A stretch of 64,000 nucleotides of DNA from positions 4,643 through 68,642 of IMG/VR virus record IMGVR_UViG_3300046475_000322. One strand, 5' to 3'. This DNA comes from a virus (taxonomy: Duplodnaviria > Caudoviricetes). The notes under the pieces are model-generated. The model saw only the letters and a program-made list of their open reading frames with translations, was not told where the DNA came from and made no database searches. The position numbers were made by a program, and so were the translations under genes. Of this stretch, positions 3,795 to 43,244 are shown piece by piece (position 1 is the stretch's first letter; every line of letters starts with the position of its first letter).

Positions 3795-4397
3795 CTAGAA
3801 CGGCGGGGTGTCGCTGTAGCCGGGCGGGGTGTCGTAGCTGAACGGCACGTCCGGCCGCAGGTCTTCGGCTCGGCGTTCGACGTGGCCAGCGAGGTCGAGG
3901 CCGACTCGGCGGAGTTCGTCGATGACGCTGCGGGCCCACTTGCGGACGGCGTCGTTCTCGCCGTCGACGAGCGCTTCCGCGACATGTCCGGCGATGACCG
4001 GGATCGCGGCGGCCAGCGTGTCGGCCGGGGTGACGTGCCCGGCGAGGTTGAGGTTCCGCAGGGCGGTCTCGACCGTCGGCGAGTACGGCTTGCCGGGGAT
4101 GCAGGGCTTGAACTCGGCGGCGTGCCGAGCCGCCCACGGGTCGTCGTCCACGATCTCGGCGGGCACGACCCAGTCCACGACATTGCGCCACTCGTTGATG
4201 TGGGGGCCGTCGCCGACGTACCGGTCGGTGAGCTGTGCGCCGGCGGCTGCGGCCTGCGCGGCGGCGAAGTGTGCCTGCGCCGACATCAGGTGGTGGAGTG
4301 AGGCGCCCGGGTCGACGGGCCTGCCGCCCGGCTTGTCGAGGAACGATGCGCTGCTGAGGTGCCGCTCGCCCTCGCGGTAGTGCTGGGGCCCGTTCAC
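3795..4397 (-). CDS. Hypothetical phage protein (200 aa)
   Basis: ORF track; overlaps upstream gene stop; N-terminal MNGPQHYREGERHL motif. Confidence 0.75.
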   Translation of the reverse strand: MNGPQHYREGERHLSSASFLDKPGGRPVDPGASLHHLMSAQAHFAAAQAAAAGAQLTDRYVGDGPHINEWRNVVDWVVPAEIVDDDPWAARHAAEFKPCIPGKPYSPTVETALRNLNLAGHVTPADTLAAAIPVIAGHVAEALVDGENDAVRKWARSVIDELRRVGLDLAGHVERRAEDLRPDVPFSYDTPPGYSDTPPF

Positions 4398-6643: not shown

Positions 6644-7287
6644 TGGCCACCGCCGTCGGTGATGTCGGTCCAGCCGCCGTGCGCCCAGTCGTCCGGGTCC
6701 AGCGCGGTCGCGAACCAGTGGTGAACGGCATCGACCTGGGCGTACTTCCAGCCGAGGGCCCGGTTCTCACCCGTGGTGGGGCTGGGGCTGATGGCCTCGC
6801 ATCGGAACCTCGTCGTGCCGCTGGCGTAGGTGCGGCCCGGCTGGAAGAAGGTTGCGGGACCTTCCACCGCCAGCTCCGCACGGTTGATCACCGCCACGGT
6901 CGCTGCCAGGTACTGCGACACGAGGAGCAGCGCGCCCGGCAGGTCGCCGGTCAGGGGCCAGTGACCGCCCCGCGCCCCGGTCACATGCAGTTCGTGCCGG
7001 GCTGCCGCGCCTTCCAGCCACAACAACTCGCGGGCGCTGAGCGGGTCACCCGTTCCCCGGCGGATCTCGGTGATCCGCTCGTCCGTCGGAACGGAGGCAG
7101 GGCACCAACTGAAGTGCGGGACCTGCTCGCAGACACAAGGGCGGTCGGCGTAGATGGTGGCCGTGTCCGCCGTGTTGGTGACCTCGGCCAGCACCTCAGT
7201 GCGGTACGCGTCGAGGCGGGCGTCCAGTTCGTGGGTGGCGGTCTCGTCGAGGGGGAACATCGCGTGAATCGCGGCACGGGCGCTCAT
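6640..7287 (-). CDS. Hypothetical phage protein (215 aa)
   Basis: ATG 7287 overlapping upstream stop. Confidence 0.7.
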   Translation of the reverse strand: MSARAAIHAMFPLDETATHELDARLDAYRTEVLAEVTNTADTATIYADRPCVCEQVPHFSWCPASVPTDERITEIRRGTGDPLSARELLWLEGAAARHELHVTGARGGHWPLTGDLPGALLLVSQYLAATVAVINRAELAVEGPATFFQPGRTYASGTTRFRCEAISPSPTTGENRALGWKYAQVDAVHHWFATALDPDDWAHGGWTDITDGGGQ

Positions 7288-7997
7288 CGGGCACCGCCCA
7301 GCCGCTTGCGCTCCCGGTAGGCCGCATGCCGCGCCTTGTGACACGCACGGCAGATCCGCGACCCGGTCTTGGGGATCACATACAGGTTGTCGCCCGACAG
7401 CTCATGCCCGTGCTTGCAGTGCGTCTGCTCACCAGACGCCTTCTCGTTGGGCCGACCCAGGTACTTCACAGACTGGGACGGGTAAGGCTTCCTGTACCCA
7501 TGCCGGGCCAAGCGCGAGACGACAGCGTTGTGCTGAACCCCCAGCACCTTGGCCAAGTGCTTGATGCTCACGCCCTGCAACACGAGCGAGTTCAGATGAG
7601 CCGTGAACTCTTCGCTGACCCGCCGCTCCGGAGCATCGGCAGGTGTTGCGCCGTTGACCTTCGCGGCGGTTCGCTGCATGGCCCGGAGCTGCTCCGCCAG
7701 CTCGTTGTTTACGAGCAGCCTGCGCCGTGGCGGCTTCCGTTCGGGCTGCGGCTTGCGGGGCGGCAACGGAATGTCGGGCAGCTTGCCAGGCACGTTCACC
7801 GTGGACCGGCTGACCATTTGGTCGATGGCCTGTCGGCTCACGCCCAGGGGCGTCGCCAGCGACTGGCAGGTCCAGCCGTTCATGCGGGCGACGATGAGAG
7901 TCGCCCCGAAGCGGGGGTCTCGCCCGTCTCTCATACGCTGCAACTCGGCGGCGAAGTCGGCAGGGAGGGTCTGGTCTTTGCGGATGAGGTCGCTCAT
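7284..7997 (-). CDS. Tandem-HTH protein with C-terminal C/H zinc module
   Basis: ATG 7997; GWTCQSLATPLGVSRQAIDQM and GVSIKHLAKVLGVQHNAVVSRL; THCKHGHELSGDN...RICRAC. Confidence 0.7.
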   Translation of the reverse strand: MSDLIRKDQTLPADFAAELQRMRDGRDPRFGATLIVARMNGWTCQSLATPLGVSRQAIDQMVSRSTVNVPGKLPDIPLPPRKPQPERKPPRRRLLVNNELAEQLRAMQRTAAKVNGATPADAPERRVSEEFTAHLNSLVLQGVSIKHLAKVLGVQHNAVVSRLARHGYRKPYPSQSVKYLGRPNEKASGEQTHCKHGHELSGDNLYVIPKTGSRICRACHKARHAAYRERKRLGGAR

Positions 7998-8191
7998 GCT
8001 GACCGCCTGTCCTGCTGGCCGGGCAGCGGGTGGGCGGCGCAGTAGTCCCGGGTCGCCTTGTGCGTCGGGTGCTTGATCGCCCGCCTCGCCCAACCCCACG
8101 GCCGGCCGGTGTCCGCGTAGGCGACCTCGTCCGCAATGTCCATCTCGCCGTCGCCGGTCTCGTCCGGGCCGTCGTACTGGTCGTCGTTCAT
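7994..8191 (-). CDS. Small hypothetical protein (65 aa)
   Basis: ATG 8191 MNDDQYDGPD; overlapping operon structure. Confidence 0.6.
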   Translation of the reverse strand: MNDDQYDGPDETGDGEMDIADEVAYADTGRPWGWARRAIKHPTHKATRDYCAAHPLPGQQDRRSA

Positions 8192-11443: not shown

Positions 11444-12850
11444 ATGCGCCACGAACCCGCTGACCCGCAACTCGCCGCGATCTACTGCCGCATGAGCGAA
11501 GACCGCGAAGGCGGCGGCCTCGGCGTCGACCGACAACGCGAAGACTGCGAACAGCTCGCACAGCAACTCGGCATCACCGTCGTCCGCGTCTACACCGACA
11601 ACGACCTCAGCGCCTACAGCGGCAAGCCCCGCCCCGGATACCAGGCCATGCTCGAAGCCCTCCGCGCAGGCACCTACGGCGCCGTCATCGCCTGGCACAC
11701 CGACCGCCTCCACCGCAGGCCCACAGAGCTGGAGGAGTACATCGACGTCTGTGAGCCGCGCCAGATCCAGACCCGCACCGTGAAGGCCGGCAGCCTCGAC
11801 CTGTCCACGGCCACCGGCCGGATGATCGCCCGACAGCTCGGCGTCCAAGCCCGCTACGAAGTCGAGCGGATGATCGAGCGACAACGACGGGCGCGCGAGC
11901 AGAAGGTCCAGCGCGGCGAATGGTCCGGAGGCCCGCGTCCCTACGGCTGGGAAGCCGACGGCGTCACGCCCGTCATCCAGGAGATCGAGGTCATCCGCGA
12001 GGCGGCAGAAGCCGTCCTCGCTGGAGCCTCCATCCGGGCCCTTGCCGTAGACCTCAACAAGCGTGGCCTGCTCAGCAGCACGGGATCTCACTGGGACGGC
12101 AGCACTCTCAGAAGGATGCTCATGCGGCCCCGCAACGCGGGCATCCTCCAGCACCGCGGCGAAGAGGCTGGCCCGTCGAAGTGGGACGCGGCCCTCGATG
12201 AGCCGACGTGGCGCAGCCTGCGCGCCGTCCTCGACGACCCGTCCCGGATCCCCACCGCGTCGAACGTGCGCAAGCACCTCGGCTCCGGCCTGTACCTGTG
12301 CGGCGTGTGCCGCGAGCCGCTCACCTCCTTCTCGAAGGGCAGCGGCCACCCCGCGAAGTACAAGTGCCGCAAGAACAACTGCGTCCTGCGCGACCTGGAC
12401 CTCCTCGACAAGTGGGTCGTCTGGCACCTGCTGCGCCGCCTGAAGGAGCCGGATGCGGCAGAGGTATTCGCCCGCCGGGAAGACGGCGGCCCGGACCTGA
12501 AAGCTACGCAGCAGAAGCTGACGAAGGCGCGCGAGAAGCTCGACGAGCTGGCAGCCGCCTTCGGCGCGGGCGAGATCGATATGCAGGAGTGGCGTATCGC
12601 CCGCGAGGGCGCGCGGGCCAAGAAGGCAGAAGCTGAGGCGATCCTGTCGTCCGCGGTACGGGTGAACCCGATCGCAGAACTGCTCAACGCCGACGACATC
12701 GGCGCCGCATGGACGGCCTGGGACCTGGCCCGGAAGCGGGCAGGAATCGACTGGGCGATGACCGTGCGGGTCCTGCCGGCGAAGATCGGGCGTCAGCCCG
12801 GGGGCGGGTACTGGGATCCCGATGCGGTGGACATCAAGTGGAAGAAGTAG
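11444..12850 (+). CDS. int: Large serine recombinase (integrase)
   Basis: AAIYCRMSEDREG (catalytic Ser), DNDLSA, RPGYQAML, DRLHR, PYGW, zinc ribbon LYLCGVC...YKC, C-terminal coiled coil. Confidence 0.95.
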   Translation: MRHEPADPQLAAIYCRMSEDREGGGLGVDRQREDCEQLAQQLGITVVRVYTDNDLSAYSGKPRPGYQAMLEALRAGTYGAVIAWHTDRLHRRPTELEEYIDVCEPRQIQTRTVKAGSLDLSTATGRMIARQLGVQARYEVERMIERQRRAREQKVQRGEWSGGPRPYGWEADGVTPVIQEIEVIREAAEAVLAGASIRALAVDLNKRGLLSSTGSHWDGSTLRRMLMRPRNAGILQHRGEEAGPSKWDAALDEPTWRSLRAVLDDPSRIPTASNVRKHLGSGLYLCGVCREPLTSFSKGSGHPAKYKCRKNNCVLRDLDLLDKWVVWHLLRRLKEPDAAEVFARREDGGPDLKATQQKLTKAREKLDELAAAFGAGEIDMQEWRIAREGARAKKAEAEAILSSAVRVNPIAELLNADDIGAAWTAWDLARKRAGIDWAMTVRVLPAKIGRQPGGGYWDPDAVDIKWKK

Positions 12851-14184: not shown

Positions 14185-14943
14185 GTGGCACAGCCCGAGT
14201 ACCTGCGGATCGCCGCCGACCTGCGGCAACGCATCTCCTCCGGCGAGTACGGGCCCGGCGACCAGATCCCGCCGATCCCCGCCCTCGCCCGGGAGTACGG
14301 CAGCGTGTCCGAGACGACGATCCGCAACGCGCTTCGGCTCCTCGCCAACGAAGGGCTCATCGGCGGCCGCGGTCCCAAGGGCACCCGCGTCCTGCCCCGC
14401 CCGCCCATCCACCGCATGCCGGCCGACCGCTACCGGACCACGCCCGGAGCCCGGTCCACCCCGTACACGCGGGATCAGGGCATCGGCTGGTCCGAGTACC
14501 GGTTGGATAAGAGGTTCGAGCGGGTGGCCGCAACCCAGGAGCTGGCCGCGCTGTTCGAGTGCGAGGTGGGGGAGCGGCTTCTCGCCCGGCATTTCGTGTT
14601 CCACGACAACGACCAGCCCACCCAGATGTCCACCAGCTACGTCCGCTGGTCGGACGTCGAGGGCACCCCGGTCGCCGACCCGATCAACGAACCCTGGCCC
14701 GGCGGCACCCGCGCGCAGCTCGCCTCCGTCGGCATCACCGTCACCCGCATCACCGAGAGCTTCACCTCGGCCATGCCGACCGACGAAGAGGCCACGACGC
14801 TGCGCATAGGGCCCGGCGTTCCCGTCCTGCGGTACACGCGGCGGCACGTCGCCGACACGGGCCGGATCGTCGAGGTGGCGCACCCGATCGTGCGGCGGGG
14901 CGATACGACCGTGGTGGACTTCGTCATCGACCTCGACGAGTAG
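14185..14943 (+). CDS. GntR (HutC/UTRA) family regulator
   Basis: YLRIAADLRQRISSGEYGPGDQIP...TTIRNALRLLANEG; C-terminal UTRA. Confidence 0.93.
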   Translation: MAQPEYLRIAADLRQRISSGEYGPGDQIPPIPALAREYGSVSETTIRNALRLLANEGLIGGRGPKGTRVLPRPPIHRMPADRYRTTPGARSTPYTRDQGIGWSEYRLDKRFERVAATQELAALFECEVGERLLARHFVFHDNDQPTQMSTSYVRWSDVEGTPVADPINEPWPGGTRAQLASVGITVTRITESFTSAMPTDEEATTLRIGPGVPVLRYTRRHVADTGRIVEVAHPIVRRGDTTVVDFVIDLDE

Positions 14944-14962: not shown

Positions 14963-15142
14963 ATGCCCTGCGTCCCCGCCCGCCCTGGTTCCGTGCGGTC
15001 TGCTGCCCAGCTCAACCAGGACATCCGCCAGCTGTGGCTCCGCGCCCGAGGCGGTCTCACCCCGCGGGAACGCGCCGAGTACGAGCGGCTGGTCGTCGCA
15101 TGGGCCGTCGCGGTGAAGGCCGAGATCGTCACCGCAGCCTGA
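14963..15142 (+). CDS. Small hypothetical protein (59 aa), possibly leaderless
   Basis: Hand-translated RSAAQLNQDIRQLW...EYERLVVAW; TAGAAT 6 nt before ATG. Confidence 0.7.
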   Translation: MPCVPARPGSVRSAAQLNQDIRQLWLRARGGLTPRERAEYERLVVAWAVAVKAEIVTAA

Positions 15143-15198: not shown

Positions 15199-16521
15199 TC
15201 AGGTCCAAGTACCCGGCGTCCCACCCGCGGTGCACAGGTGCCAGGCGCCGGCCGAGTCAAGGACCACATCCCCGGCCACCCACGTGTCCGTGGTGGGCGC
15301 ACCCGAGGTCGCCTTGAACCCAGCCAGCCGGACGCCGGTCAACCCGTTCTTCGATCCGGCCGCGGCAACGCCTGCGATGGCGACGGTGGGCGTCGTCGGA
15401 TGCGGCGTGACGTGCAGGGCGTGGACGCCGTTCGCCGTGTCCGTGACGAACAAGTCGTTGCTGCCGTCGTTCAGCATCTGAACGGCCCAGCGCTCGACCG
15501 TGCCCGTCGTCAAAGCGAAGCCACCGAAGTTCGACGTCGTCCCCCGGTTGAGGACGATGATCGCGGTGCCGCTGCTGGTGACCGTGAGGCCGCCCTCGGA
15601 GATGTCGACAGGCGCCGTGAAGTGCCCGCCGTTGAGGTAGGCCGTGCCCTGCTCGATCGCGGCGACACGGGTCAAGCAGTCGTTGACGAAGACGTCGAGG
15701 CTGGAGACCGCGATGGAGAGCGAGTTGACGGTGCCGTTCAGCGTGCTGAGGTCGAGCTGGGTGGCGAACTTCGTGTCGGCCCAGGCCCGGTCGCCGTGCG
15801 GGTCGGCAGCTCCGACGTGCGTGCTGACCTTGCCCGTTGCCCCGCTCTGCGTCTCCAGCACCGCAGTGTCGGCGATGCCGTGGACAGAGGTCGTGTCGGC
15901 CTCGTGCGTGCCCACCTTGCTGGTCGCATCCGATGCCGCGGTACTGATCGCGGCAGCCTGCGCAGCGTTGGCCTTCGTCGTCGCATCGGACGCTGCCGTG
16001 CTGATCGCAGCAGCCTGCGCCGAAGCAGCCGCGCCGGCCGCATCGAACAGGGCGACACTGCTGGCCGACAGGGTCGGATCCGGGTACGTCCCAGCGAGTG
16101 CTCCGCCTGCGGGGCCGGTGGGTCCGGACGCTCCGCCATCCGCGCCTTGCGGTCCGCGGGGTCCGATGACGACGACGTAGTCGGTGGGGAGCGCCTCGAC
16201 CTCCAGCACCGTCCCGAGCGAGACCGTGCCTGCGGAGGCGGGCAGGCTGATGTTGCGGGAGATCGGCGGCTGCCCGGTCAACGCCAGGTCCATGCGCCAG
16301 ATGAACGGCTCGTCGAGGGCGTCGGTGGCGACGAGGTTGACGTGCATCCCGGACGCGCCGATGGTGGCGTTCTCCGGGCCGAGGTAGATGCCGCCCGGGT
16401 CGACCAGGACCGGCGGGACCGGCGTGAACGCAGCCGTGCCCTGCCGATCCGTGCCGTCCGGAGAGAGGGGCGGGAAGACAGCGGTGAGCGTGACCGTGGC
16501 CACGCCATCAGGCAAAGGCAT
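15199..16521 (-). CDS. Tail fibre/minor structural protein with short collagen-like segment
   Basis: N-terminal baseplate-type domain, GPRGPQGADG, 19-aa AQAAAISTAASDAT repeats, His-rich repeats, beta-rich tip. Confidence 0.75.
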   Translation of the reverse strand: MPLPDGVATVTLTAVFPPLSPDGTDRQGTAAFTPVPPVLVDPGGIYLGPENATIGASGMHVNLVATDALDEPFIWRMDLALTGQPPISRNISLPASAGTVSLGTVLEVEALPTDYVVVIGPRGPQGADGGASGPTGPAGGALAGTYPDPTLSASSVALFDAAGAAASAQAAAISTAASDATTKANAAQAAAISTAASDATSKVGTHEADTTSVHGIADTAVLETQSGATGKVSTHVGAADPHGDRAWADTKFATQLDLSTLNGTVNSLSIAVSSLDVFVNDCLTRVAAIEQGTAYLNGGHFTAPVDISEGGLTVTSSGTAIIVLNRGTTSNFGGFALTTGTVERWAVQMLNDGSNDLFVTDTANGVHALHVTPHPTTPTVAIAGVAAAGSKNGLTGVRLAGFKATSGAPTTDTWVAGDVVLDSAGAWHLCTAGGTPGTWT

Positions 16522-16533
16522 CTCTGACTCCAG

Positions 16534-16908
16534 TCAGCCGTAAGGCGTGAGGTCTGCGGGCACGGGCTCCTCCGGCTGACCAGCCGCATCGAGTCGACGG
16601 TTCGCCCGCCGGATGACCCCCATCGCCGTGCGGAGCAGCTCGCGCATCCGGTTCTCGCGGGTCGCGCCCTGCTCCATCAGGTCGGTGAGGTGGTCGACCT
16701 TCTGCTCCAACTTGGTGATCTTCGCCTGCATGTCCTGCCAGATCGCGGGTGATACCTGCAACTGCCCGGAGATCTCCACCACTTCAGCAGGGGCGCCAGC
16801 GGTGATCTCGCCCTTCGGCCCGCCGGGACCGCGCCGCCCCGTGTAGATCGCCCCGATCAGGCCGATCGCCGCCACCACAGCGCCCCACAATCCGCTGTCA
16901 GACCCCAT
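16534..16908 (-). CDS. Lysis-cassette membrane protein (1 TM plus coiled coil)
   Basis: LWGAVVAAIGLIGAIY then MQAKITKLEQKVDHL. Confidence 0.7.
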   Translation of the reverse strand: MGSDSGLWGAVVAAIGLIGAIYTGRRGPGGPKGEITAGAPAEVVEISGQLQVSPAIWQDMQAKITKLEQKVDHLTDLMEQGATRENRMRELLRTAMGVIRRANRRLDAAGQPEEPVPADLTPYG

Positions 16909-17326
16909 GGCCGCCGCCCCTCATGCCGTACTCGGGCCACCGGTTGATCTGCATGAGAATGAAGACGAGCGCTCCCCAGGTACAGGTCGAGGTCCACGCC
17001 TGGCCGAAGTCACCGGACAGCCAGGCGATCAGGTTGGCGAGGGACCACAGGGTCATCGGGATGGTGGCGGCGGCGAACCCCCACCGGTCCCATCGAGGCT
17101 TGGGTTCGAAGGCGAGAGCGACCGCAGCCGTGCCGCAGAGAATCCACAGCGCACCCCACCAAGGCATGGGGCGCAGGTGAGTGAGGACGCTGACGCCGCG
17201 CACGATGCCGTACCGGGGGTCCGAGGCGATGCCCCAGCCGTACAGCGTCTCCATCACACCGAACGCGAGGAGGATGCTGCCGCGGCGGCCCAGCCGTTTA
17301 CGGAGCCGTCGGACCGCCGCTCGCAC
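16898..17326 (-). CDS. Four-TM membrane protein, holin-like
   Basis: Four hydrophobic helices, basic N-terminus, follows holin. Confidence 0.7.
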   Translation of the reverse strand: MRAAVRRLRKRLGRRGSILLAFGVMETLYGWGIASDPRYGIVRGVSVLTHLRPMPWWGALWILCGTAAVALAFEPKPRWDRWGFAAATIPMTLWSLANLIAWLSGDFGQAWTSTCTWGALVFILMQINRWPEYGMRGGGHGV

Positions 17327-17635
17327 TCAGGCCGCCTTGACGAAGCTGTCCTGCGCCCGGCCGCTCACACCGACGGGCTTCCAGAACCCGAAGTGCGCGA
17401 GGACAGCGCTGGCGAAGCTGACGAGCGCCAACACTGCGGCGGTACCCACGCTGTACCCGGCGTCGTGCGGGCCGGCGTATTCGGTGACGAACCCGGTCGC
17501 CGTGGACAGCGCGAGCAGAAGCACCGCCTTGACGCCAGCGTCCGTGACTCTGGTGGTGACCAGGCCGACGAGGACAGGCAGGATCACGGAGACGAGCAGG
17601 CCGAGCCAGTAGGCGGAGTCGAGGTGAGCGTTCAT
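17327..17635 (-). CDS. Holin
   Basis: Three TM (LGLLVSVILPVLVGLVT...), directly after endolysin. Confidence 0.8.
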   Translation of the reverse strand: MNAHLDSAYWLGLLVSVILPVLVGLVTTRVTDAGVKAVLLLALSTATGFVTEYAGPHDAGYSVGTAAVLALVSFASAVLAHFGFWKPVGVSGRAQDSFVKAA

Positions 17636-17656
17636 GGCGGGGTTCCTCCCAGGGGG

Positions 17657-18448
17657 TCAGACGTTGGGGACGTGGAGCTTGGCCCAACTGGACGGGCCGG
17701 GTATGCCGTCAGCGGACGTGCCGGTGTAACCGAGGTGCCGTTGCCATGCCGCGTAGGAGCGTTCGTCGCCCGGGCCCCACACGTCGGCGTTCGCAGGCGA
17801 GGCGTAGTGGTTGCAGCCGACCGCCACCAACCGCTTGTGCATCGCCGCGATCACCGGCGACCGGCGACCGGACCGGAAGAACGAGGCGCCAGGGAACGGC
17901 TCGTAGGCCGGCGTCACGGGCGGCGCCGGTTCCGTCACCGTGCTGGCCGGACGGGGCGCGCCCTTCTGCACCCAGGCGTACAGCGGGCCGCCGGGGCAGG
18001 CTGTGGCGTAGCCGTCGCGGTGGCCCTTGATCTCGGCCCCGGCGCCGTGCTGGCGGAGCAGCTCGATGCCGTCGCGGATCGCGTCGAGCATCAGGTCGGT
18101 CGGCTCGGTCAGACCCTCGGATCCGACGAGGCCGACGATCGCGTAGTGCGCCACGTTCAGCGGCTGGTTGCCGTTGGCGCCGGTCCGCTTGCCGATGCCG
18201 CGGCCTTCGAGGAGGTAGCCGTGGGGGCAGGCCCCGTAGTTGTAGGCGATGTCGGAGTAGTTCTCGACCGTGTTCGCGAGGTGGGACCTGCGGATGGCCT
18301 GCCACTCGGCGATGCACGCGGCGTGGTCCGCGAGCAGCTTCGTGCTCACGGCCGTGCCCTCGTAGTGGACCTTCACGCCCTGCGTGGACGTCTGTATCGG
18401 CGCGGCCGAGGCAGGCCAGCCGAGCTCAGATCGGGTGACGAGCTTCAT
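17657..18448 (-). CDS. Endolysin: PGRP/amidase_2 plus peptidoglycan-binding domain
   Basis: ATG 18448; VKVHY, SDIAYNY, EGRG, KGHRD..TACPG; C-terminal ADGIPGPSSW. Confidence 0.92.
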   Translation of the reverse strand: MKLVTRSELGWPASAAPIQTSTQGVKVHYEGTAVSTKLLADHAACIAEWQAIRRSHLANTVENYSDIAYNYGACPHGYLLEGRGIGKRTGANGNQPLNVAHYAIVGLVGSEGLTEPTDLMLDAIRDGIELLRQHGAGAEIKGHRDGYATACPGGPLYAWVQKGAPRPASTVTEPAPPVTPAYEPFPGASFFRSGRRSPVIAAMHKRLVAVGCNHYASPANADVWGPGDERSYAAWQRHLGYTGTSADGIPGPSSWAKLHVPNV

Positions 18449-18927
18449 GCCGCGGGCTCCTCTACGGGGTGGATGGCGAGCTTGAACTCGGCGAGGGTGA
18501 CCCGCCGCGATGACGTCGCGTCGTGTGCGACGAGGAGGCCAATGGGGACGTCGGGCCGGACGAAGATCTCGTGGTGCTTGGTGAAGCACTGGATCCCCGG
18601 CGACGGAGCGCGGTGGTCGGTGGCCGTGGAGTCGTAGTCGCCGAGCGGGTCGCGGACGAACCGGTCGCGGACCTCGGTGTAGTTCCCGGCCTCCCAGTAG
18701 ATGAGGGAGGTGAGGACACCCCAGCCCGCGACGGCAGGCCAGATCAGGCCGGAGCGGTCGTCCTTCGACCAGCTGGTGACGGTGCCCCCGTCGGGCTGGG
18801 TGGGCTGGTGCATACCCCATGGGTCGTAGGACTCGGTGGTGTAGGGGAAGCGGACGACGCGGTACTGCCCGTCGGTGGGGATGGTCTGCGGGATGTCGGC
18901 CTTCAGCGAGCAGATGCGGGTGGTCAC
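18445..18927 (-). CDS. Hypothetical protein preceding endolysin
   Basis: 160 aa, 4-nt overlap with endolysin. Confidence 0.75.
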   Translation of the reverse strand: MTTRICSLKADIPQTIPTDGQYRVVRFPYTTESYDPWGMHQPTQPDGGTVTSWSKDDRSGLIWPAVAGWGVLTSLIYWEAGNYTEVRDRFVRDPLGDYDSTATDHRAPSPGIQCFTKHHEIFVRPDVPIGLLVAHDATSSRRVTLAEFKLAIHPVEEPAA

Positions 18928-18981
18928 TGGTGGCCCTTCGACGGTGGTGCGTGGCGTTGAGCTGCACCCGACACGCGCGTA

Positions 18982-19028
18982 CCTTCAAATCGTAGCCTCA
19001 ACCCCGCATTTCACCTACGAATCAGAGG
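18982..19028. promoter_or_regulatory. Back-to-back pair of putative late-promoter motifs
   Basis: Minus gctacgatttgaagg (18982-18996) facing lysis genes; plus cctacgaatcagagg (19014-19028) facing the glyco operon. Confidence 0.7.
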
Positions 19029-19147
19029 TAACCTGTGCGTGGGTTCTTTGCTCAGAGGGCCTATGGCAGGGGCGTGTCCGTGCGGGTCGCGTCCCTGCCG
19101 CGCCAAACCCGCACCCACCCGCACCGCAACCCGCACAGGAGTCACGC

Positions 19148-19819
19148 ATGGCCGAGCCGATTACCGACGCGACCCCCTGTTCATCCGAGGGGCCTCCGCG
19201 CACACAGCCGCGCGCCTCCGTCATCGAGCTGATCGCCCCGGACTTCATCCCCAGCGAGGACGGCGCGGGCAGCATCGTCGTCCCTCGCGAAGTCCGGATC
19301 AACGGGGTCTCTGTCCTGACCGCTGGGTCTTCGGGCCGCGTCCTGATCGGCGACATCCGGCTCGGCTCGGACCTCGTCACCGTTACGGTCACCCTCGTTG
19401 CCCGCCGCCTCGTCATCGCCGCAGACGGAGACCTCGACGGGCTGTCGGACGCGGACGCGGTTCCCGTCGACTCCAGCGAGTTGGAGGACGGCAGCCTCCG
19501 TGACCAGCTAGACGAGGCCCGCCAGTGGGCGCGCCACGGCTACGAGATCGGCCAACGCCACTGCTCCTGGAGCGACCACGGCGTGGCCCCGGCCTGGCTG
19601 ACGGAGGGCTGGCCGCCGCACATCGACAGCTGCGAACACCTGAAGCACGCCGCCGATCTCGACACGGCGCTCTCCCGGGTGCGAGGTCTCTCCGTCGAGC
19701 CCGAAGTCATGAACGCCCAGCAGGAGCACCCAGGCGTGTGGAAGCGCGGCTACAAGTGCGGGGTCCTCGCGGCCAAGTCCGCAACCAGGCCGCGCGACGA
19801 GGAGACGGAGAAGCCGTGA
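19148..19819 (+). CDS. Hypothetical protein, first gene of inverted operon
   Basis: ATG 19148 with AGGAG RBS. Confidence 0.75.
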   Translation: MAEPITDATPCSSEGPPRTQPRASVIELIAPDFIPSEDGAGSIVVPREVRINGVSVLTAGSSGRVLIGDIRLGSDLVTVTVTLVARRLVIAADGDLDGLSDADAVPVDSSELEDGSLRDQLDEARQWARHGYEIGQRHCSWSDHGVAPAWLTEGWPPHIDSCEHLKHAADLDTALSRVRGLSVEPEVMNAQQEHPGVWKRGYKCGVLAAKSATRPRDEETEKP

Positions 19820-19926
19820 CCGTCATCTGTCAGGCGCTCGGCTGCCTGTTCGCGTTCGTCATGCTCGCCCCACACGCACCGGTCCACGCCTACGACTACC
19901 CGACCGTCGCCCGGAGTTCGCGATGA
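19816..19926 (+). CDS. Small hydrophobic peptide (36 aa)
   Basis: GTGA and ATGA overlaps on both sides. Confidence 0.5.
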   Translation: MTVICQALGCLFAFVMLAPHAPVHAYDYPTVARSSR

Positions 19927-20336
19927 CCGAGCCTCACATCCACGTCGCCTGCGCCGCGCTCCACCGGGACGCGCAGGGCAACACGGTCCCGTGCCCCGGG
20001 TATCCGCACACGGCCGAGCGCAAGGAGCGGGACGCGGAGGAACCCGAGACCAACTCTGACGACGAGGACGGGCGTCCCGAAGCCCCCTCCGACGAAGACC
20101 CGAACCCGGCCCTACCCGTCCGCCCCGACCCTCGCCAACCCGCATACGACGCCGTGTACGAGTACATCCGCAAGCTCGGGCCATACCTGCCGCCCAACCC
20201 TGTGCACCGGAACGCGATCATCTGGCGGGCCGTCCACGCCGCGCTCGACGCCACCCCGGTCGGCCGATGCGTGTCCTCGCACTGCGTCGAAGGCGACCAC
20301 ATCGTGCCCGTCGACGGCGGATGGGGGGCGCCGTGA
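19923..20336 (+). CDS. Hypothetical protein (137 aa)
   Basis: Overlapping operon; AYDAVYEYIRKLG...RNAIIWRAVHAAL. Confidence 0.7.
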   Translation: MTEPHIHVACAALHRDAQGNTVPCPGYPHTAERKERDAEEPETNSDDEDGRPEAPSDEDPNPALPVRPDPRQPAYDAVYEYIRKLGPYLPPNPVHRNAIIWRAVHAALDATPVGRCVSSHCVEGDHIVPVDGGWGAP

Positions 20337-20554
20337 CTGAGCGCACCACCCGGCTGCCCTACGACCACGCCCTGTACCTGATCAACTCAGTCTGCGAGAA
20401 CACCGACAAGATCGCAGCAACAGCGCACGGTCAACCCCGCGACCTGGACGGCCCGACAGCGACCGCACTCCTCGTCGCAACAGCCAACGCCGCGATCGCC
20501 TCTGCGCTCCTCGCAGTCGCCGACGCACTCCGCAACCCGCCGGAGCAGCCGTGA
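20333..20554 (+). CDS. Hypothetical protein (73 aa)
   Basis: GTG 20333; ALLVATANAAIASALLAVADAL. Confidence 0.65.
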   Translation: MTERTTRLPYDHALYLINSVCENTDKIAATAHGQPRDLDGPTATALLVATANAAIASALLAVADALRNPPEQP

Positions 20555-21627
20555 CTCAGCAGGCCATCGACCCCCCACACCCCGCCTACAACATCCCCCC
20601 CACCCTCCGCGGACCCGACTGGCAGAACCCCCACGCCAACATCCCACCCCTCGACGTCTTCGGCTGGGCCGCCGACAACGCAGGCTGCGGCTACTACCGC
20701 ATCCAACTCCCCACGCGCGGACTCGCCGACCTCGGCTACGCCACCCACTCCAGCACCCGGCTGCCCCAACCCGTCCGCCACAACCCGGCCGTCACGATCA
20801 TCGGCCAACGCGTCTGCGACCCCAACCCCTCACAGCTGTGGCAGCAACTCGCAGCAGAGGGACGCCACCTCATCTACGAGATCGACGACGACCTCTTCAA
20901 CATCGACCACCGCAGCCCCGCCGCGCACCAGTACTACGCCCGGCCCGACGTCCGCGCCAACATCGTCCGCAACATCACGGTGGCCGCGGCAGTGACGGTG
21001 ACAACGGAACCGCTCGTCGACATCGTCCGCCAGTGGAACCCGGTCGTTCACGTCATCCCCAACGCCGTCCCCAACTGGCTCCTCGACCACACCCCGCCCC
21101 AGCGTGCAGACGGCGTGCTCACCATCGGCTGGGGCGGCAGCGCCACCCACAACATGGACTGGGACCAGACCAGCAGCCAGATCCGCCGCTTCCTCCAACG
21201 CCACCCCCAGACCGAACTCCACTGCATCGGCAACGACTACGGCGCCACCCTCCGCGCCCCACGCCGACGATTCACCCCATGGGTGCCCAACGTCGAAGCG
21301 TTCCTCCAAGCGATCGACTACCACATCGGCGTCGCCCCCCTCCTGCCCCACGTGTTCAACCGCAGCAAGTCCGCGATCAAAGCGCTTGAGTGCGCAGCCC
21401 TCGGCATCCCCACCGTCGCCAGTGCGGTCCGCCCCTACGAGGACTACGTCCTCGACGGCGCCACCGGCTACCTCGTGCGCCGCGACCACGAATGGGGCCA
21501 GCACCTCCGCGCCCTCGCCACCGACCCCGCCATGCGCGCAGAGATGGGCGCCGCCGCCCGCGAGCACGCACGCACCTCCACCATCAGCGCCATCGCGCCA
21601 CTCTGGGAGAAAGCGATCCTCGGATGA
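20551..21627 (+). CDS. GT-B (GT4-like) glycosyltransferase
   Basis: GCGYYRI, EIDDDLF, IPNAV, IGWGGS, KSAIKALECAALGIPTVAS, DGATGYLV. Confidence 0.9.
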   Translation: MTQQAIDPPHPAYNIPPTLRGPDWQNPHANIPPLDVFGWAADNAGCGYYRIQLPTRGLADLGYATHSSTRLPQPVRHNPAVTIIGQRVCDPNPSQLWQQLAAEGRHLIYEIDDDLFNIDHRSPAAHQYYARPDVRANIVRNITVAAAVTVTTEPLVDIVRQWNPVVHVIPNAVPNWLLDHTPPQRADGVLTIGWGGSATHNMDWDQTSSQIRRFLQRHPQTELHCIGNDYGATLRAPRRRFTPWVPNVEAFLQAIDYHIGVAPLLPHVFNRSKSAIKALECAALGIPTVASAVRPYEDYVLDGATGYLVRRDHEWGQHLRALATDPAMRAEMGAAAREHARTSTISAIAPLWEKAILG

Positions 21628-22667
21628 CCAAGCACGTTCTCCTCACCGGTGCCGCAGGATTCGTCGGCTCCCACGTCCTGCGCCACCTCCTCACCAACAC
21701 CGACTGGACCATCGCGGCGCCCGTCACGTTCCGGCACAAGGGCGTACCTGCCCGCATCACCTCGGCACTCGGCGGACACCCCGGTTGGTGGGACCGCGTC
21801 GATGTTGTCACCTGCGACCTCACCGCCCCCATTGACCCGGTCACCGCCGCCCGGTTCGGCGCGGTGGACTACCTGTTCAATGTGGCGTCCGAGTCGCACG
21901 TCGACCGCAGCATCGAGCAGCCCGGCCCGTTCATCGAGAACAACACCCGGCTCATCACCAACATCCTCGACTACGCCCGCCAGGCCCAGCCGGGGCTGGT
22001 CCTCCAGATGTCCACGGACGAGGTGTACGGGCCGGCGCCGGACGGGTACGCGCACCGCGAGTGGGACCCGATCATGCCGTCGAATCCGTACTCGGCCAGC
22101 AAGGCGGCGCAGGAGGCCATCGCGTTCACGTACTGGCGGACCTACGGCGTGCCCGTCGTGATCACCAACACGATGAACATCATCGGCGAGCAGCAGGACA
22201 CCGAGAAGTTCGTCCCCAAGACCCTCCGTGCCATCCTGCGCGGTGAGGCGCCCACCGTGCACGTCGCACCCGACGGACGGCCCGGCTCCCGCTTCTACCT
22301 CCACGCCCGGAACCTCGCAGACGCGTGGCTGTGGCTCGCCCGCAACCACAAGCCGCAGCAGTACGCCAACGGGCACGATCGCCCGTCCCGGTTCCACATC
22401 GTCGGCGAACGCGAGGTCACCAACACCGAGATGGTCCAGCTCCTCGCCGACGCTGCCGGGCTGCCCGTACCGGAACTGAACCTCGTCGACTTCCACTCCA
22501 GCCGACCCGGCCACGACCTCCGATACGCCCTCGACGGGGGCCGCCTCGCTACCGCGGGATGGAAGCCGCCGCTCGGGTTGGAGGAGTCGCTGCGGCGGAC
22601 GGTGGAATGGACGCTCGCGCACCCGGAGTGGCTTGGCCTCGACCAGGCGGTGGCTCGTGCTGTCTGA
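21624..22667 (+). CDS. rmlB: dTDP-glucose 4,6-dehydratase-like SDR
   Basis: VLLTGAAGFVGSH, ASESHVDRSI, STDEVYG, PSNPYSASKA, RPGHDLRYALD. Confidence 0.9.
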   Translation: MTKHVLLTGAAGFVGSHVLRHLLTNTDWTIAAPVTFRHKGVPARITSALGGHPGWWDRVDVVTCDLTAPIDPVTAARFGAVDYLFNVASESHVDRSIEQPGPFIENNTRLITNILDYARQAQPGLVLQMSTDEVYGPAPDGYAHREWDPIMPSNPYSASKAAQEAIAFTYWRTYGVPVVITNTMNIIGEQQDTEKFVPKTLRAILRGEAPTVHVAPDGRPGSRFYLHARNLADAWLWLARNHKPQQYANGHDRPSRFHIVGEREVTNTEMVQLLADAAGLPVPELNLVDFHSSRPGHDLRYALDGGRLATAGWKPPLGLEESLRRTVEWTLAHPEWLGLDQAVARAV

Positions 22668-23304
22668 ACTTCGCCTCGACCCGGCCGTGTTCGCCGACGC
22701 GGCCCCGTTCCCCCACGCTGTGATCGAGGGGCTGTGGGACCCGGATCACCTCCGCGCCTGCGCCGCCGAGTTCCCACCCGGAGACGACCCCCGCTGGACG
22801 ACCTACCCGGACCCGAAGGAGATCGGCAAACGCGCCGGCGACTCCCGCATGTGGGGACCGGCCACCCATGCCTTCTTCAAAGCGGCACGCTCGGACACGG
22901 CATGCCGGGCACTGGAGGACGCCACCGGGATCGGGCCGCTCACCGCGGACGACCTCGGCGGCGGGATGCACATGACCGGCGAGGGCGGCCGGCTCGCCAT
23001 GCACCGGGACTTCAACCGGCATCCGACGCTGGCGTTGGAGCGGCGCCTGAACCTGCTGATCTTCCTGAACGAGGAATGGGAGCGGGACTGGGGCGGCGTC
23101 CTCTACCTCGGGCAGGACGGGGACGTGGAGGTGCTGCCCACCTTCAACCGCACCGTCCTCTTCGCGTGCGGCCCGGAGTCGTGGCACGGGCACCCGGCCC
23201 CGATTGTCGGGGAGCGCTGGCGGCGGTCGCTGGCCTGCTACTACTACGCGCCGCTCCGCGAGGAGACCGCGGCCCCGCACTCCACCGTCTGGGGCGAGCG
23301 ATGA
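22657..23304 (+). CDS. 2OG-Fe(II) oxygenase, prolyl-4-hydroxylase-like
   Basis: PFPHAVI, GGGMH...MHRDFN (HxD), RRLNLLIFLNEEW..WGG, WHGHP, RRSLACYYY; start GTG 22657 or 22633. Confidence 0.9.
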   Translation: MLSELRLDPAVFADAAPFPHAVIEGLWDPDHLRACAAEFPPGDDPRWTTYPDPKEIGKRAGDSRMWGPATHAFFKAARSDTACRALEDATGIGPLTADDLGGGMHMTGEGGRLAMHRDFNRHPTLALERRLNLLIFLNEEWERDWGGVLYLGQDGDVEVLPTFNRTVLFACGPESWHGHPAPIVGERWRRSLACYYYAPLREETAAPHSTVWGER

Positions 23305-23969
23305 ACGACCCTCATCGGGCGGCCGTCATCCCGACCCGGAACCGGCACGATCTGCTGACCGACTGCATCAACTCCGTGGTGGACCAGGTCGACCGAGTCA
23401 TCGTCGTCGACAACGAGTCCGACCCTCCGATCGACCCCAACCAGTGGAATGGCAAGGTCGGCGTCCTTCGGGTGCCGCTCGATCCGCCGAACATCAGCAC
23501 GCTGTGGAACGTGGGCCTGCGCGCGGTTACGGCGGCGGCGCCCGCTGGCGAATGGGACGTGGCCGTCCTCAACTCTGATGTCGTGGTCCCGGCCGGCTGG
23601 ATGGATGCCCTGTCGTCGGCGATGCGGGCCACCACTGCGGTGCTCGCCTACCCGGATCAGGGGGGCGGCCGGGAACAGATCCTGCACACCCGGGCCGAGC
23701 CGGTCGATCTGCGGCAGCGGATCACCGGGTACGCATACATGCTGCGTGGCGAGGCGGGCCTGCGCCTCGATGAGTCGATGGCCTGGTGGTACTCGGACGA
23801 CGACCTCGACTGGCAGGCCCGGCAGCAGGGCGGTGCGCTCCTGGTCCCCGGGCTCGCGGTTGAGCACCGCTGTCCGAACGAGTCGACGAACGCGCGCCCG
23901 GAGTTGCAAGAGCAGGCGGGCCGGGACCGGGAGACCTTCATCGCCAAGTGGGGAAAGGCGCCGCACTGA
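23301..23969 (+). CDS. GT-A (GT2-like) glycosyltransferase
   Basis: AVIPTRNR, VIVVDNES, AVLNSDV, WYSDDDL. Confidence 0.88.
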   Translation: MNDPHRAAVIPTRNRHDLLTDCINSVVDQVDRVIVVDNESDPPIDPNQWNGKVGVLRVPLDPPNISTLWNVGLRAVTAAAPAGEWDVAVLNSDVVVPAGWMDALSSAMRATTAVLAYPDQGGGREQILHTRAEPVDLRQRITGYAYMLRGEAGLRLDESMAWWYSDDDLDWQARQQGGALLVPGLAVEHRCPNESTNARPELQEQAGRDRETFIAKWGKAPH

Positions 23970-24505
23970 TGCATGTGGAAGCGCGTGACGGGCTGGCCCG
24001 TCAACTCGAAGCATCCGGCCTCGATCTGGGGGCGCCGTGGCGGGTCCTCGACCTCGGCGGCCGGGACATCAACGGCAGCATCCGGGACCTGCTGCCTGCG
24101 GCGAAGTGGACCGGCCTCGACATCGAGCCGGGCCCCGGAGTCGACCTCGTCCACGACGCCACCCAGGCATGGCCAGCAGGGTTCGAGCGGTTCGACCTGG
24201 TGGTGTGTACCGAGGTGCTGGAGCACGTCGAGCGGTGGGGTGCGCTGTTGCGGACGGCGTCGGAGGCGCTGGAACCGGATGGCCCGGAGGCCCTGTTCGT
24301 GACGTGCGCATCGACGGGGCGGCGGCCGCATGGGGCGTCGGGCGGAATGGATCCGGCGCCGGGTGAGTGGTACGAGAACGTCGCCCCAGCCGAGCTGACT
24401 GGCGTGCTGGAGGGGGTGTTCCGGTACGCGGTCGTGGAGTATCGGGCGAACCCGGGGGACGCTTACGCGCGGGCGCAGGGGGTGCGTCGTGCCGTCGCCG
24501 CTTGA
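23969..24505 (+). CDS. Class I SAM-dependent methyltransferase
   Basis: VLDLGGRD, GLDIEPGPGVD, FDLVVCTEVLEHV. Confidence 0.88.
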   Translation: MHVEARDGLARQLEASGLDLGAPWRVLDLGGRDINGSIRDLLPAAKWTGLDIEPGPGVDLVHDATQAWPAGFERFDLVVCTEVLEHVERWGALLRTASEALEPDGPEALFVTCASTGRRPHGASGGMDPAPGEWYENVAPAELTGVLEGVFRYAVVEYRANPGDAYARAQGVRRAVAA

Positions 24506-25118
24506 GATCACCGTGGTCATCCCTGCGCATCCGGCGCGGGTCGTCAACGGCATGCTTGACCGGGCGGTGAAGTCCGTCGAGGCGCAGCTGCTCCCGACCG
24601 CTGGCATCAGCATCGCCATCGACGAGGACGGCGACGGCGCGGCCATCACCCGGCAGCGCGCCCTCGACGCGGTGCGCACCGAGTGGGTCGCGTTCCTCGA
24701 CTCGGACGACTGGTTCTACCCCGAGCACCTGCGCGTCCTGGCAGCCGGGGCACGGATCTTCCGCGCGGACTACGTCTTCTCCTACTACATGGTCCACTTC
24801 CCCGACGGGAAGCCGTGGCCCGCGAACGATCCGCTCGGCCATTTCGGGAAGACCTTCAACCCGGCCAAGCCGCACCAGACGACGATCACCACGCTGGTCC
24901 GTACCGACCTGGCCAAGCAGGTGGGCTTCTTCGACCCACCCCCGGACAGCGTCGTCGGCGGCCACCGAGGCGGCGAGGACTGGCACTTCACGGTGGGGTG
25001 CGCGGAGGCGGGGGCGAAGATCGTGCACGTGCCGAGGCGCACGTGGGCATGGTGCCATCACGGCGCGAACAGCTCCGGAATCCCAGGGCGCGGCGACGCA
25101 ACAGTGAGCCGGCCGTGA
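24489..25118 (+). CDS. GT-A (GT2-like) glycosyltransferase
   Basis: ITVVIPAH, RQRALDAVRTEWVAFLDSDD, GGEDW, HHGANSSG. Confidence 0.9.
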   Translation: MPSPLEITVVIPAHPARVVNGMLDRAVKSVEAQLLPTAGISIAIDEDGDGAAITRQRALDAVRTEWVAFLDSDDWFYPEHLRVLAAGARIFRADYVFSYYMVHFPDGKPWPANDPLGHFGKTFNPAKPHQTTITTLVRTDLAKQVGFFDPPPDSVVGGHRGGEDWHFTVGCAEAGAKIVHVPRRTWAWCHHGANSSGIPGRGDATVSRP

Positions 25119-25327
25119 CCGGGCCCGAGAACTACACCGCAGCCGAGCGGCTCCTCGCCGCCGCCGACGAATACGAAACCGAAGGTGACCACCAGGCCGC
25201 CACCCACCGCCGCACCGAAGCCCTCGTGCGCGCCGCCCTCGCCCTCACAGCCAGCCACGCACTCCACCACCACCCGCTAAGCACCAGCTGGGCACACGCC
25301 ATCAACCCCCAGGAGAGCCAGCCATGA
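25115..25327 (+). CDS. Hypothetical protein (70 aa)
   Basis: GTG 25115 MTGPENYTAAERLL; overlapped start/stop. Confidence 0.65.
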   Translation: MTGPENYTAAERLLAAADEYETEGDHQAATHRRTEALVRAALALTASHALHHHPLSTSWAHAINPQESQP

Positions 25328-25548
25328 GCCAGCAGATCAGCGTCGAAGACGCCCTCGACGCGTTCCGTAAGCGGCACGGCGAGGTCGCCGACGAGAACGT
25401 CCTCCTGCGCGCGCAGGTCGCCGGCCTGGAGCGGCGGCTGTCCGACGCGCTCCAGGAGAACGAGCGTCTCCAGCAGGCAGCCGCCGCTGTTCCCGTCGGC
25501 CCAGACCTGGCCGCGCAGCCCCCGTACCTGGACGAGAAGCAGGGCTAG
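25324..25548 (+). CDS. Coiled-coil hypothetical protein (74 aa)
   Basis: ENVLLRAQVAGLERRLSDALQENERLQ. Confidence 0.7.
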   Translation: MSQQISVEDALDAFRKRHGEVADENVLLRAQVAGLERRLSDALQENERLQQAAAAVPVGPDLAAQPPYLDEKQG

Positions 25549-26567: not shown

Positions 26568-27150
26568 GCGAGTTGTCCTTCACTACGAGGGGCTTGGCCA
26601 CCGGCTCGGGAGCAGCACGGCCTTGGGCAACGAGGCGCCGCTGGTGGATCTCGCCGGCCTTCCTGGCGACCCAGTCAGCGTCGACGCCGTGATTCGCACG
26701 GATGAGGTCGAGTGGGTCCTTCTTGCCCTTCGGCGCAGCGACCCGCACGTTGTGGGTCTTGCCGTGCTCAATGCGCAGCAGGTGCGCCTCGCGGGCGGTT
26801 GCCGCATCGGTCGCGGTGTACAGGGTGGTGGGGATCAGATCGCCCTTGCGTGCCGTGCCGCGCGAGACGAGCGCAGGCGACAGCAAGCCCGCCGCGGCGG
26901 CCGGGTCTTCGCCCTTGAGGGGATCATCGGGGTGGGGTGCGTAGGGCTCGTGGAGGACGATGTCGAGGAGCTGGTCGACGTCGGTGGGGTCGATGCCGTA
27001 CTCGGCTGCCCGCTGGAGCAGCGTGAACTTGGGGAAGACGTGCCGGTGCCCGGTCCCGTCCGGTTTGATCATGTCGACGGCCCAGCAGGGCATGCCGGGG
27101 TTCGGCCAGTACTCGCTGACCGCCTGGACTGTGAATTCGTCAGCTGCCAT
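26560..27150 (-). CDS. Tail-associated hypothetical protein
   Basis: ATG 27150 MAADEFTVQ; sits between two minor tail genes. Confidence 0.7.
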   Translation of the reverse strand: MAADEFTVQAVSEYWPNPGMPCWAVDMIKPDGTGHRHVFPKFTLLQRAAEYGIDPTDVDQLLDIVLHEPYAPHPDDPLKGEDPAAAAGLLSPALVSRGTARKGDLIPTTLYTATDAATAREAHLLRIEHGKTHNVRVAAPKGKKDPLDLIRANHGVDADWVARKAGEIHQRRLVAQGRAAPEPVAKPLVVKDNSHA

Positions 27151-42227: not shown

Positions 42228-43244
42228 CTATGCGGCGGCTGGGAAGCGGCCGGTGCGGGTGGCGGTGCGGGCTGTGGTCTCGACTGCGGGGAGCAGGTCG
42301 TCAACGGTGCGCAGGAGTTCACGGGCGGCGCGCACCCGGGCGGCGGTCGACTCCGACGGGCGGGCCCGGCCGTAGCCGATCGCGCGCTCGGCCTCCCGAC
42401 GCAGCCCCTCCGGGAACGGGATACCGGACGTGGTCCACGCGTGGTTCCAAGGGACGGCCCTGCATCTGCAATGGCTGTGAAGCGGCGGCCCTTCCACCCC
42501 CGGCGCCCCGATGCGACGCTGCCGCGGATCCCAGGACAGGCCCCCGGGGAACGGCTCGTCGGCCTTGACCACACGCCCGGTGTACGCAAGGCAGTTCACG
42601 CACGCGTCCGCTTCGCAGATCCACAGGCGCAGCGGCGCGGTCGCCCGGACGACCGCGTCCAGGCCTTCGTGCACCGCGGTGTTGATGACCCAGGCGATGC
42701 GTGCCCGGATCGCAGGCAGGACCGCGCGGGCGGCGCCGAGCCCGGCCAGCAGGTGCGACCAGCGGGTGACCCGATCCGGATGCAGCAGATGCAGCGCCCG
42801 ATCCCGGCGCTCCACCACCATGTCCCGAATCAGCGCCGCCTCATCCCGCAGCACACGACTGACAGCTGGCATCCGCAGGGCGCTTCGACGCTGGCCGGAC
42901 GCGGCGGTCACGAACGCCGTGCCCTGCTCAACCCCCAACGCCACAGCAGGGGTCAGCCGGTCGGCGAGCGCGGCGGGCGCCCGGTCGGCAACACCGTTGA
43001 GGATCCGCCGTACCCCGGTCTGCGCAGCGGCCAGGATCCGACGCAGCAGGTCGCCGGGCAGGGCCTGACGATTGGGGCCGCCGAACGCGCGAGTCCAGGC
43101 CGCGAGAACGGCGCGGATCAGCTCCTCGAACGCCCGGTCGCTGCTGCCGAGTGCGCGGGTGGAGGCACTCCCCTCCAGGTTGATGACCTCGTCCGTGTGC
43201 TCCCCCTGGACGAGGTCGATGAGGTCGTCGCTGGAGTACGGCAT
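42228..43244 (-). CDS. MuF-like head morphogenesis protein
   Basis: WICEADACVNC...PPLHSHCRC. Confidence 0.8.
   Translation of the reverse strand: MPYSSDDLIDLVQGEHTDEVINLEGSASTRALGSSDRAFEELIRAVLAAWTRAFGGPNRQALPGDLLRRILAAAQTGVRRILNGVADRAPAALADRLTPAVALGVEQGTAFVTAASGQRRSALRMPAVSRVLRDEAALIRDMVVERRDRALHLLHPDRVTRWSHLLAGLGAARAVLPAIRARIAWVINTAVHEGLDAVVRATAPLRLWICEADACVNCLAYTGRVVKADEPFPGGLSWDPRQRRIGAPGVEGPPLHSHCRCRAVPWNHAWTTSGIPFPEGLRREAERAIGYGRARPSESTAARVRAARELLRTVDDLLPAVETTARTATRTGRFPAAA

Follow-up and report, generated by a model that had tools for sequence, protein, structure and literature searches.

The window, that is, the whole stretch of 64,000 nucleotides of DNA that was analysed, comprises bases 4643-68642 of a 68.6-kb IMG/VR virus record, has a GC content of about 70% and is from a Streptomyces-type temperate phage. 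The genes and gene blocks that form the setting of the motif described below are the following:

11444-12850, serine integrase gene
15199-18927, minus strand, lysis block, consisting of the genes for a 160-aa protein, the endolysin and the holin, then three further genes
17327-17635, minus strand, holin gene of the lysis block
17657-18448, minus strand, endolysin gene, the second gene of the lysis block
19148-25548, plus strand, accessory (glyco) operon, opening with an ATG at 19148
43244-44770, minus strand, portal gene, with a TTG start at 44770
44867-46423, minus strand, terL (terminase large subunit)
46427-47020, minus strand, terS, with an ATG at 47020

The assignments of the terminase large subunit, the major head protein, the endolysin, the holin and the six enzymes listed below for the accessory operon were upheld. 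The virion genes form a long operon on the minus strand, which begins with terS, terL and the portal gene, continues with the gene of the major head protein and extends to 25545, where it is closed by a fibre-like gene. The first gene of the lysis block (GTG at 18927) encodes the 160-aa protein, which has no assigned function; the endolysin gene comes second. The accessory operon encodes, in this order, two unknown proteins of 223 and 137 aa, a GT1 glycosyltransferase, an epimerase/dehydratase, a 2OG-Fe oxygenase, a GT2 glycosyltransferase, a methyltransferase, another GT2 glycosyltransferase (the third glycosyltransferase of the operon) and a 74-aa coiled-coil protein. Upstream of terS the window has genes for a lipoprotein, a Cys-rich protein and an HNH endonuclease. 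The predicted lipoprotein (47185-47811, minus strand), whose gene lies directly upstream of terS, has a signal peptide with a Cys lipobox and repeated domains; in most relatives it is replaced by a divergent gene that has its own copy of the motif.

Four 15-mers had been pointed out in a preliminary description of this DNA as copies of one motif, each facing the gene downstream of it, and both their positions and their orientations were confirmed in the sequence:

18982-18996, minus strand, lysis-side copy, GCTACGATTTGAAGG, its 3' end 54 nt before the GTG of the 160-aa gene
19014-19028, plus strand, accessory (glyco) side copy, CCTACGAATCAGAGG, its 3' end 119 nt before the ATG at 19148
44789-44803, minus strand, portal-proximal copy, CCTTCGATTCAAAGG, its 3' end 18 nt before the portal TTG, with a Shine-Dalgarno (SD) sequence in between
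47056-47070, minus strand, terS-proximal copy, CCTACGATTCAAAGG, its 3' end 35 nt before the terS ATG

The lysis-side and accessory-side copies are divergent, with 17 bp between them (32 bp centre to centre). The neighbours originally assigned to the copies (terS, portal, the lysis genes and the glyco operon) were retained, with the correction that the lysis-side copy directly precedes the 160-aa gene and not the endolysin gene. A degenerate pattern with no more than one mismatch allowed gave 5 matches, which represent the four sites, one of them read on both strands, versus 0.04 expected from shuffled sequences. Scanning the whole 68.6-kb record with a weight matrix revealed no further strong copy.

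Conservation of the motif was studied in several sets of sequences. A search by portal homology yielded 14 viral contigs and four Streptomyces prophages (75-90% identity), and the terS and portal copies were kept in nearly all of them, the terS copy being identical or having at most two changes in 15 of these relatives. Strains with such a relative are Streptomyces kaempferi CGMCC 4.7020, S. capoamus JCM 4253, S. spinosisporus 7R016 and Streptomyces sp. NPDC046931. In the alignments the motif forms a sharp footprint: it is conserved, whereas the surrounding intergenic DNA is unalignable. Ten near-complete related genomes of 64-78 kb were then compared. Strong copies were restricted in these genomes to the DNA ahead of terS, the terL/portal gap and, with a pair of copies, the gap that separates the lysis genes from the convergent accessory operon at the distal end of the virion operon; a control with the reversed pattern gave 0-1 matches. 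The copies are thus confined to the loci at which they were first noticed. The lysis copy has the GCTACGATT form in eight of the ten genomes, begins with T in G012 and with CCTATGATT in G013. The proposed tie between the sugar genes and the motif set was borne out as well, the copy of the accessory operon being paired with the lysis copy in all ten related genomes.

An exact 17-mer search retrieved 43 viral contigs, and in 42 of them, all high-GC phage contigs, the motif was located upstream of a terS homolog. These 42 contigs had not been selected for a second copy, yet they also have one of the portal type, some 20 nt ahead of the portal start, and the portal-type copy is kept even at 44-48% portal identity and without a detectable terL relationship. 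In the chromosomes of four Streptomyces hosts, exact copies were found inside prophage only. This restriction and conservation in contigs and genomes make the motif a hallmark of a large phage family. The four copies are one shared and strongly conserved cis-element at the heads of the packaging, portal, lysis and glyco units, as the preliminary description had it; literature searches did not turn up a description of such a motif. The proteins encoded next to the motif are mosaic: terL is 81-84% identical in G004 and G010 and about 50% in the other relatives including G001-G003, and portal is 83-85% identical in G001-G004 and 43-45% in G010 and G011. The mosaic breakpoint falls in the motif-bearing gap between terL (44867-46423) and portal (43244-44770).

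The motif is dyad-symmetric, with the consensus CCTWCGAWTCRAAGG and the half-site CCTWYGA, and its core contains GAWTC. Both half-sites fit CCTWYGA in every copy. The portal copies vary in a symmetrical manner (CCTTYGAWTCRAAGG), in that position 5 is always Y and position 11 always R; all four forms (C..A, T..A, C..G and T..G) were found, perfect palindromes among them. In some phages the portal copy is flipped, and in G014 it is the exact reverse complement of the common form. Neither the terS copy nor the lysis copies were ever found flipped.

The core of the motif had been likened to a -10 hexamer, TACGAT. The likeness holds for the terS and lysis copies and fails for the portal (TTCGAT) and glyco (TACGAA) copies. 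A possible, if rather doubtful, explanation is that the motif itself is a phage-specific late promoter with TACGAT as -10, which would be read directionally over 15-17 bp by RNA polymerase and a dedicated phage or host specificity factor, with transcription starting at the 3' end of the motif. Several observations are consistent with such a promoter. Every copy faces its gene at a distance of 18-119 nt from the start codon. The terS copy has a fixed orientation, with T at -3 and TAC after the motif conserved. In all relatives motif positions 3-8 of the terS and lysis copies read TACGAT, TATCAT or TATGAT (TACGAT or TATGAT in the lysis copies of all ten genomes), TAnnnT at these positions of the terS copies being partly a product of the search pattern. 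No -35 hexamer 16-19 bp upstream and no extended TGn was seen in a consensus scan, and the anchored profiles are without a conserved -35, which would match -10-only or factor-dependent promoters. Finally, a WhiB-like gene is present in nine of the ten genomes. In contrast, an A at -11 and a T at -7 are not found in every copy: the portal copies have TTCGAT (window) or TTTGAA (relatives), and the glyco-side copies have TACGAA, TATGAA or worse, with no TAnnnT inside. The palindromic and sometimes inverted portal copies also speak against a directional box, and so does the phasing of the auxiliary copies (31-32 or 62-63 bp, see below), which has no role in a promoter box. Moreover, no sigma-like or polymerase gene was found.

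Scans for canonical promoters and terminators at all sites were negative. TAnnnT hexamers are rare in these genomes, yet they overlap or abut every class of site, at differing offsets. At portal, TAnCCT overlaps the 5' edge of the motif in 32 of 38 non-redundant copies, and the accessory copies have a TAnnnT hexamer at offset 11-17 in nine of the ten genomes. Judged from this pattern, the sites appear to overlap with -10 hexamers. The variable offset of the -10-like hexamers suits an operator placed over ordinary promoters better than a fixed promoter box.

A further line of evidence for an operator is the presence of auxiliary copies at regular distances from the main sites. In the window, two such copies were seen upstream of main sites in addition to the lysis/accessory pair:

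44852-44866, minus strand, weak auxiliary copy of portal, 63 bp upstream of the main portal copy and directly adjoining the stop codon of terL
47087-47101, decayed auxiliary copy of terS, with the core CGATTCG only (47091-47097), 31 bp upstream of the terS copy, centre to centre

The best partner in the lysis/accessory gap is at 31-32 bp in all ten genomes. For terS it is located exactly 31-32 bp upstream in five of ten relatives, above the 95th-99th percentile of the controls; the auxiliary terS copy of the window scores below the matrix threshold. Around portal, the best partner was found at 62-63 bp in five regions, four of them well above the control 95th percentile and that of the window weak; the portal auxiliary copy is stronger in G001, G003, G004 and G013, at 62-63 bp, and the portal regions of G002 and G012 have a weak, sub-threshold partner at 31 bp. 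Elsewhere auxiliary partners are absent or sub-threshold. The control 95th percentile of the best-partner score was 4.9 bits, and most phased partners had scores of 7-27 bits. At all three loci the partner spacing is thus 31-32 or 62-63 bp, i.e. three or six helical turns, which is the signature of putative cooperative binding on one face of the DNA.

The distance between motif and gene restricts the ways in which the sites can work. At terS and portal, in the window as well as in the relatives, an SD and a start codon follow the motif within 15-35 nt. With a start codon so close, a position of the site upstream of a -35 is impossible at these two loci, and any transcript starting there has to begin inside the site or at its 3' edge. 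The geometry of an upstream activator, with the site upstream of or over the -35, was therefore not found (portal, 18 nt; terS, 17-35 nt).

Taking these observations together, we consider the motif to be probably, though with modest confidence, a cooperative dyad operator located on the core promoters of four late units. The 15-bp dyad would be bound by a dimer of a sequence-specific regulator, a protein whose binding we infer from the restriction, conservation, symmetry and phasing of the sites. Dimers at a main site would cooperate with those at an auxiliary site at a distance of three or six helical turns, and one main site would lie on the core promoter or transcript-start region of each unit, namely terS/terL, portal with the remaining virion genes, the lysis block and the divergent accessory operon. 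In this way one protein could gate all four units together, the accessory operon having a second layer of control in its conserved structured leader (see below). The units are presumed to be late solely from their gene content. The site centre lies within about 20 bp of any possible start, which suggests that the promoters are held shut until late infection, and this negative role of the regulator is the most likely one; alternatively, the site might act positively, by giving late promoters of an unusual kind their specificity. It weighs against the operator that a dedicated late-gene repressor distinct from that of immunity would be unusual and that the fixed orientation and invariant TACGAT/TATCAT of the terS and lysis copies also fit a directional promoter element.

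The motif had been compared with the conserved phage-specific promoter motifs of phiC31. To examine this likeness the phiC31 genome (AJ006589; L100) was scanned, and 16 copies of an 18-bp palindrome, CTACTCACGTGAGTAG, were found (at 1224, 2849, 6098, 11090, 17010 and 11 more positions). Several of them lie in late-region gaps that correspond in position to those with the motif; the terL/portal gap has a copy, and so does the DNA preceding the terminase gene. We take this palindrome to represent the conserved inverted repeats (CIRs), which serve the phiC31 repressor as operators, a role that was reportedly worked out in the Smith laboratory. The CIRs are the nearest known parallel, so that the resemblance to phiC31 stands for its repressor-bound inverted repeats rather than for its promoters. 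Both elements are phage-specific perfect or near-perfect palindromes in intergenic gaps of Streptomyces temperate phages, and the outer bases CCTAC...GTAGG are common to both. They differ in number and distribution (16 CIRs over early and late regions versus 4-6 motif copies at three late loci) and in structure (an 18-bp site with another core and a known large repressor versus a 15-bp site and no repressor homolog). Unlike the CIRs, the motif is shared by phages with unrelated early regions, and its sites are paired and phased.

The parallel with phiC31 raises the alternative that the copies are roadblock or operator sites of a prophage immunity repressor (phiC31 CIR or L5 stoperator type), which would shield the late genes from read-through in the lysogen. 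In its favour, the sites are palindromic and occupy intergenic gaps in which the phiC31 repeats also lie, and they stand between co-directional genes (terL and portal), where a promoter is not strictly needed. Nevertheless, we regard it as unlikely. No copy was present in any early or immunity region of the ten genomes, and in contrast to the CIRs, which are spread over the genome, none was found outside the three late loci. The early regions are mosaic and have no common repressor; the phiC31 repressor had no homolog below E = 1 when it was compared by BLAST with six-frame translations of five genomes and of the loci obtained earlier by portal homology and motif search. An identical site in phages with unrelated early regions is also unlike immunity specificities.

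Other known systems were compared with the dyad operator proposed here. The stoperators of L5, which are bound by the gp71 repressor, are asymmetric 13-mers present in 20-30 copies genome-wide that co-vary with the immunity repressor. They resemble the motif in being short intergenic sites oriented with transcription and acting on elongation or initiation in late operons; they differ from it in that the motif is a dyad, has few copies and is restricted to late loci. Sites for the activators Ogr of P2 and C and Mor of Mu are located at -40 to -55. There the likeness is that about four late units have the same dyad element each and make up one late regulon, and the difference is that the present motif lies on the -10/+1 region, with SD and start codon within 15-35 nt. 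RinA/ArpU-type activators of Gram-positive phages act on the late operon through a site that immediately precedes terS; there is a single locus in that system, with the activator gene next to terS (PMC3152322). Here there are three loci, and the terS neighbours in the window encode the lipoprotein, the Cys-rich protein and the HNH endonuclease. By the features tested the motif is outside the CIR, stoperator, Ogr/C and RinA systems, and it is a variant of the phage operator/regulon theme.

Two further explanations can be treated briefly. The element could act in RNA, as a processing site or a small hairpin just upstream of the ribosome binding site, and its sense orientation, its AT-richness in a 70% GC genome and its closeness to the SD at terS and portal agree with this; however, positions 5/11 and 4/12 do not pair in the commonest forms, which means that no hairpin is selected, the back-to-back copies 17 bp apart would require overlapping transcripts, and the phased upstream auxiliary copies argue for recognition of duplex DNA, all of which makes an RNA element very improbable. 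Equally far-fetched is the idea that the copies are conserved linkers at module junctions, kept because they promote recombinational module exchange: they do lie exactly at mosaic breakpoints (terL about 50% versus 84% and portal 83-85% in G001-G004), and the accessory and lysis cargos differ on both sides of the pair, but 15 bp is very short for homologous exchange, symmetry, phasing and the fixed distance to the start codon would be left unexplained, and module exchange would more probably follow from the presence of conserved regulatory sites than be what these sites are kept for.

If the motif is a dyad operator, a protein must read it, and candidates for this reader were sought by comparing gene contents. 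The comparison revealed no regulator gene common to all ten genomes. Across the ten genomes, with their mosaic early regions, the shared genes are limited to virion genes, GT1, the epimerase-like gene, the 74-aa coiled-coil gene, the WhiB-like gene (nine genomes) and the gene of a 59-aa protein (nine genomes), and no Ogr-, C- or Mor-like gene was seen. Five candidates were rejected. The GntR/HutC regulator (14185-14943, plus strand), which has GntR and UTRA domains and is encoded between the integrase gene and the lysis block, is absent from all relatives compared. A 271-aa double-HTH protein (7284-8099, minus strand) is not conserved among the relatives; both of its HTH matches are weak, as is a GcrA-like match, and its tail is an HNH-like zinc finger. 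A coiled-coil and HTH family (49507-49860, plus strand) is represented in eight of the ten genomes, but it varies both in the recognition helix and in its place in the genome; in the window the gene is on the strand opposite to terS, about 2.4 kb upstream, and divergent relatives are often found at the same relative position. For the 59-aa protein (14963-15142, plus strand) a ribbon-helix-helix fold had been suspected from the sequence pattern, but the model is a plain two-helix hairpin without a structural match, and most contigs carrying the gene are without the motif within 10 kb. This protein, encoded near the prophage end in nine of the ten relatives and in about 50 other viral contigs, has many invariant residues (GSVRSA..N..IR..W...RAEY..L...WA). 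Lastly, the WhiB-like proteins of the nine genomes do not have a specific DNA-binding part in common.

A host regulon was rejected as well: exact copies in the four host genomes are limited to the prophage, and the two intergenic perfect palindromes found in hosts represent one orthologous locus and are unrelated to the motif. In both cases (L052 2280 and L055 2286) a 543-aa gene is followed by an 86-aa gene, and a 21-bp perfect palindrome comes directly after the stop codon of the latter. The palindrome differs between the species in its 3-nt centre only and therefore looks like an RNA hairpin. The reader of the motif may come from the host, although no host regulon is obvious, or it may be an unrecognised phage protein. 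The failure to find a reader weakens the operator model, and it weakens a model with a dedicated promoter to the same extent.

The accessory operon was assigned to the late set because its motif copy is invariably paired with the lysis copy and because GT1 and the epimerase-like gene occupy the same slot in all relatives compared. It has, in addition, a feature of its own:

19029-19147, plus strand, structured 5' leader of the accessory operon, 119 nt, conserved, with two hairpins

The hairpins show compensatory changes in 12 of 21 pairs. An invariant loop, GTGCGGGT, is complementary to two or three downstream ACCCGCAC repeats, the last of which touches the SD, and in G011 one compensatory loop/repeat change was seen. 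Rfam gave no family match in the leader or the divergent region. The first gene behind the leader differs between phages, which indicates that it is the leader that is conserved. The structure begins about 15 nt after the motif, which gives a bound for the start of the transcript. With such a leader in front of them the sugar genes probably share the regulation of the virion and lysis genes without being controlled identically.

From the sequence alone, a compact late regulon could be defined here for Streptomyces prophages that make up a large, unstudied group. The regulon also provides the first regulatory argument that phage sugar cassettes switch on together with virion and lysis genes, as would be expected if the sugar enzymes decorate the particle. 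It is a puzzle that the site is identical across phages whose proteins are down to 45% identical and whose early regions are unrelated; this identity in spite of divergence makes the search for a reader protein a well-posed experiment. A wider reading, which we put forward tentatively and hold to be rather less than probable as a whole, is that at least 50 Streptomyces temperate phages run their whole late programme via an invariant 15-bp dyad, with a factor that is visibly encoded by none of them and is either a host protein or an unrecognised small phage regulator, and that the sugar operon adds a pseudoknot-type leader RNA as a second switch. If this were true, the late module could be combined with unrelated early modules. 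Being small, portable and very specific, the sites could be used for tightly gated expression in Streptomyces as soon as the regulator has been found.

The lytic relative Yara (L056), a Streptomyces phage with a TerL 48% identical, was also inspected. The palindromic motif is absent from Yara. Its late gaps (3908-3997, 7730-7862, 18862-18961 and 26767-26834) contain GGG-n-TAnnnT elements with the hexamers TATCAT, TATGAT, TAGAGT and TATAAT, which are probably ordinary -10 promoters.
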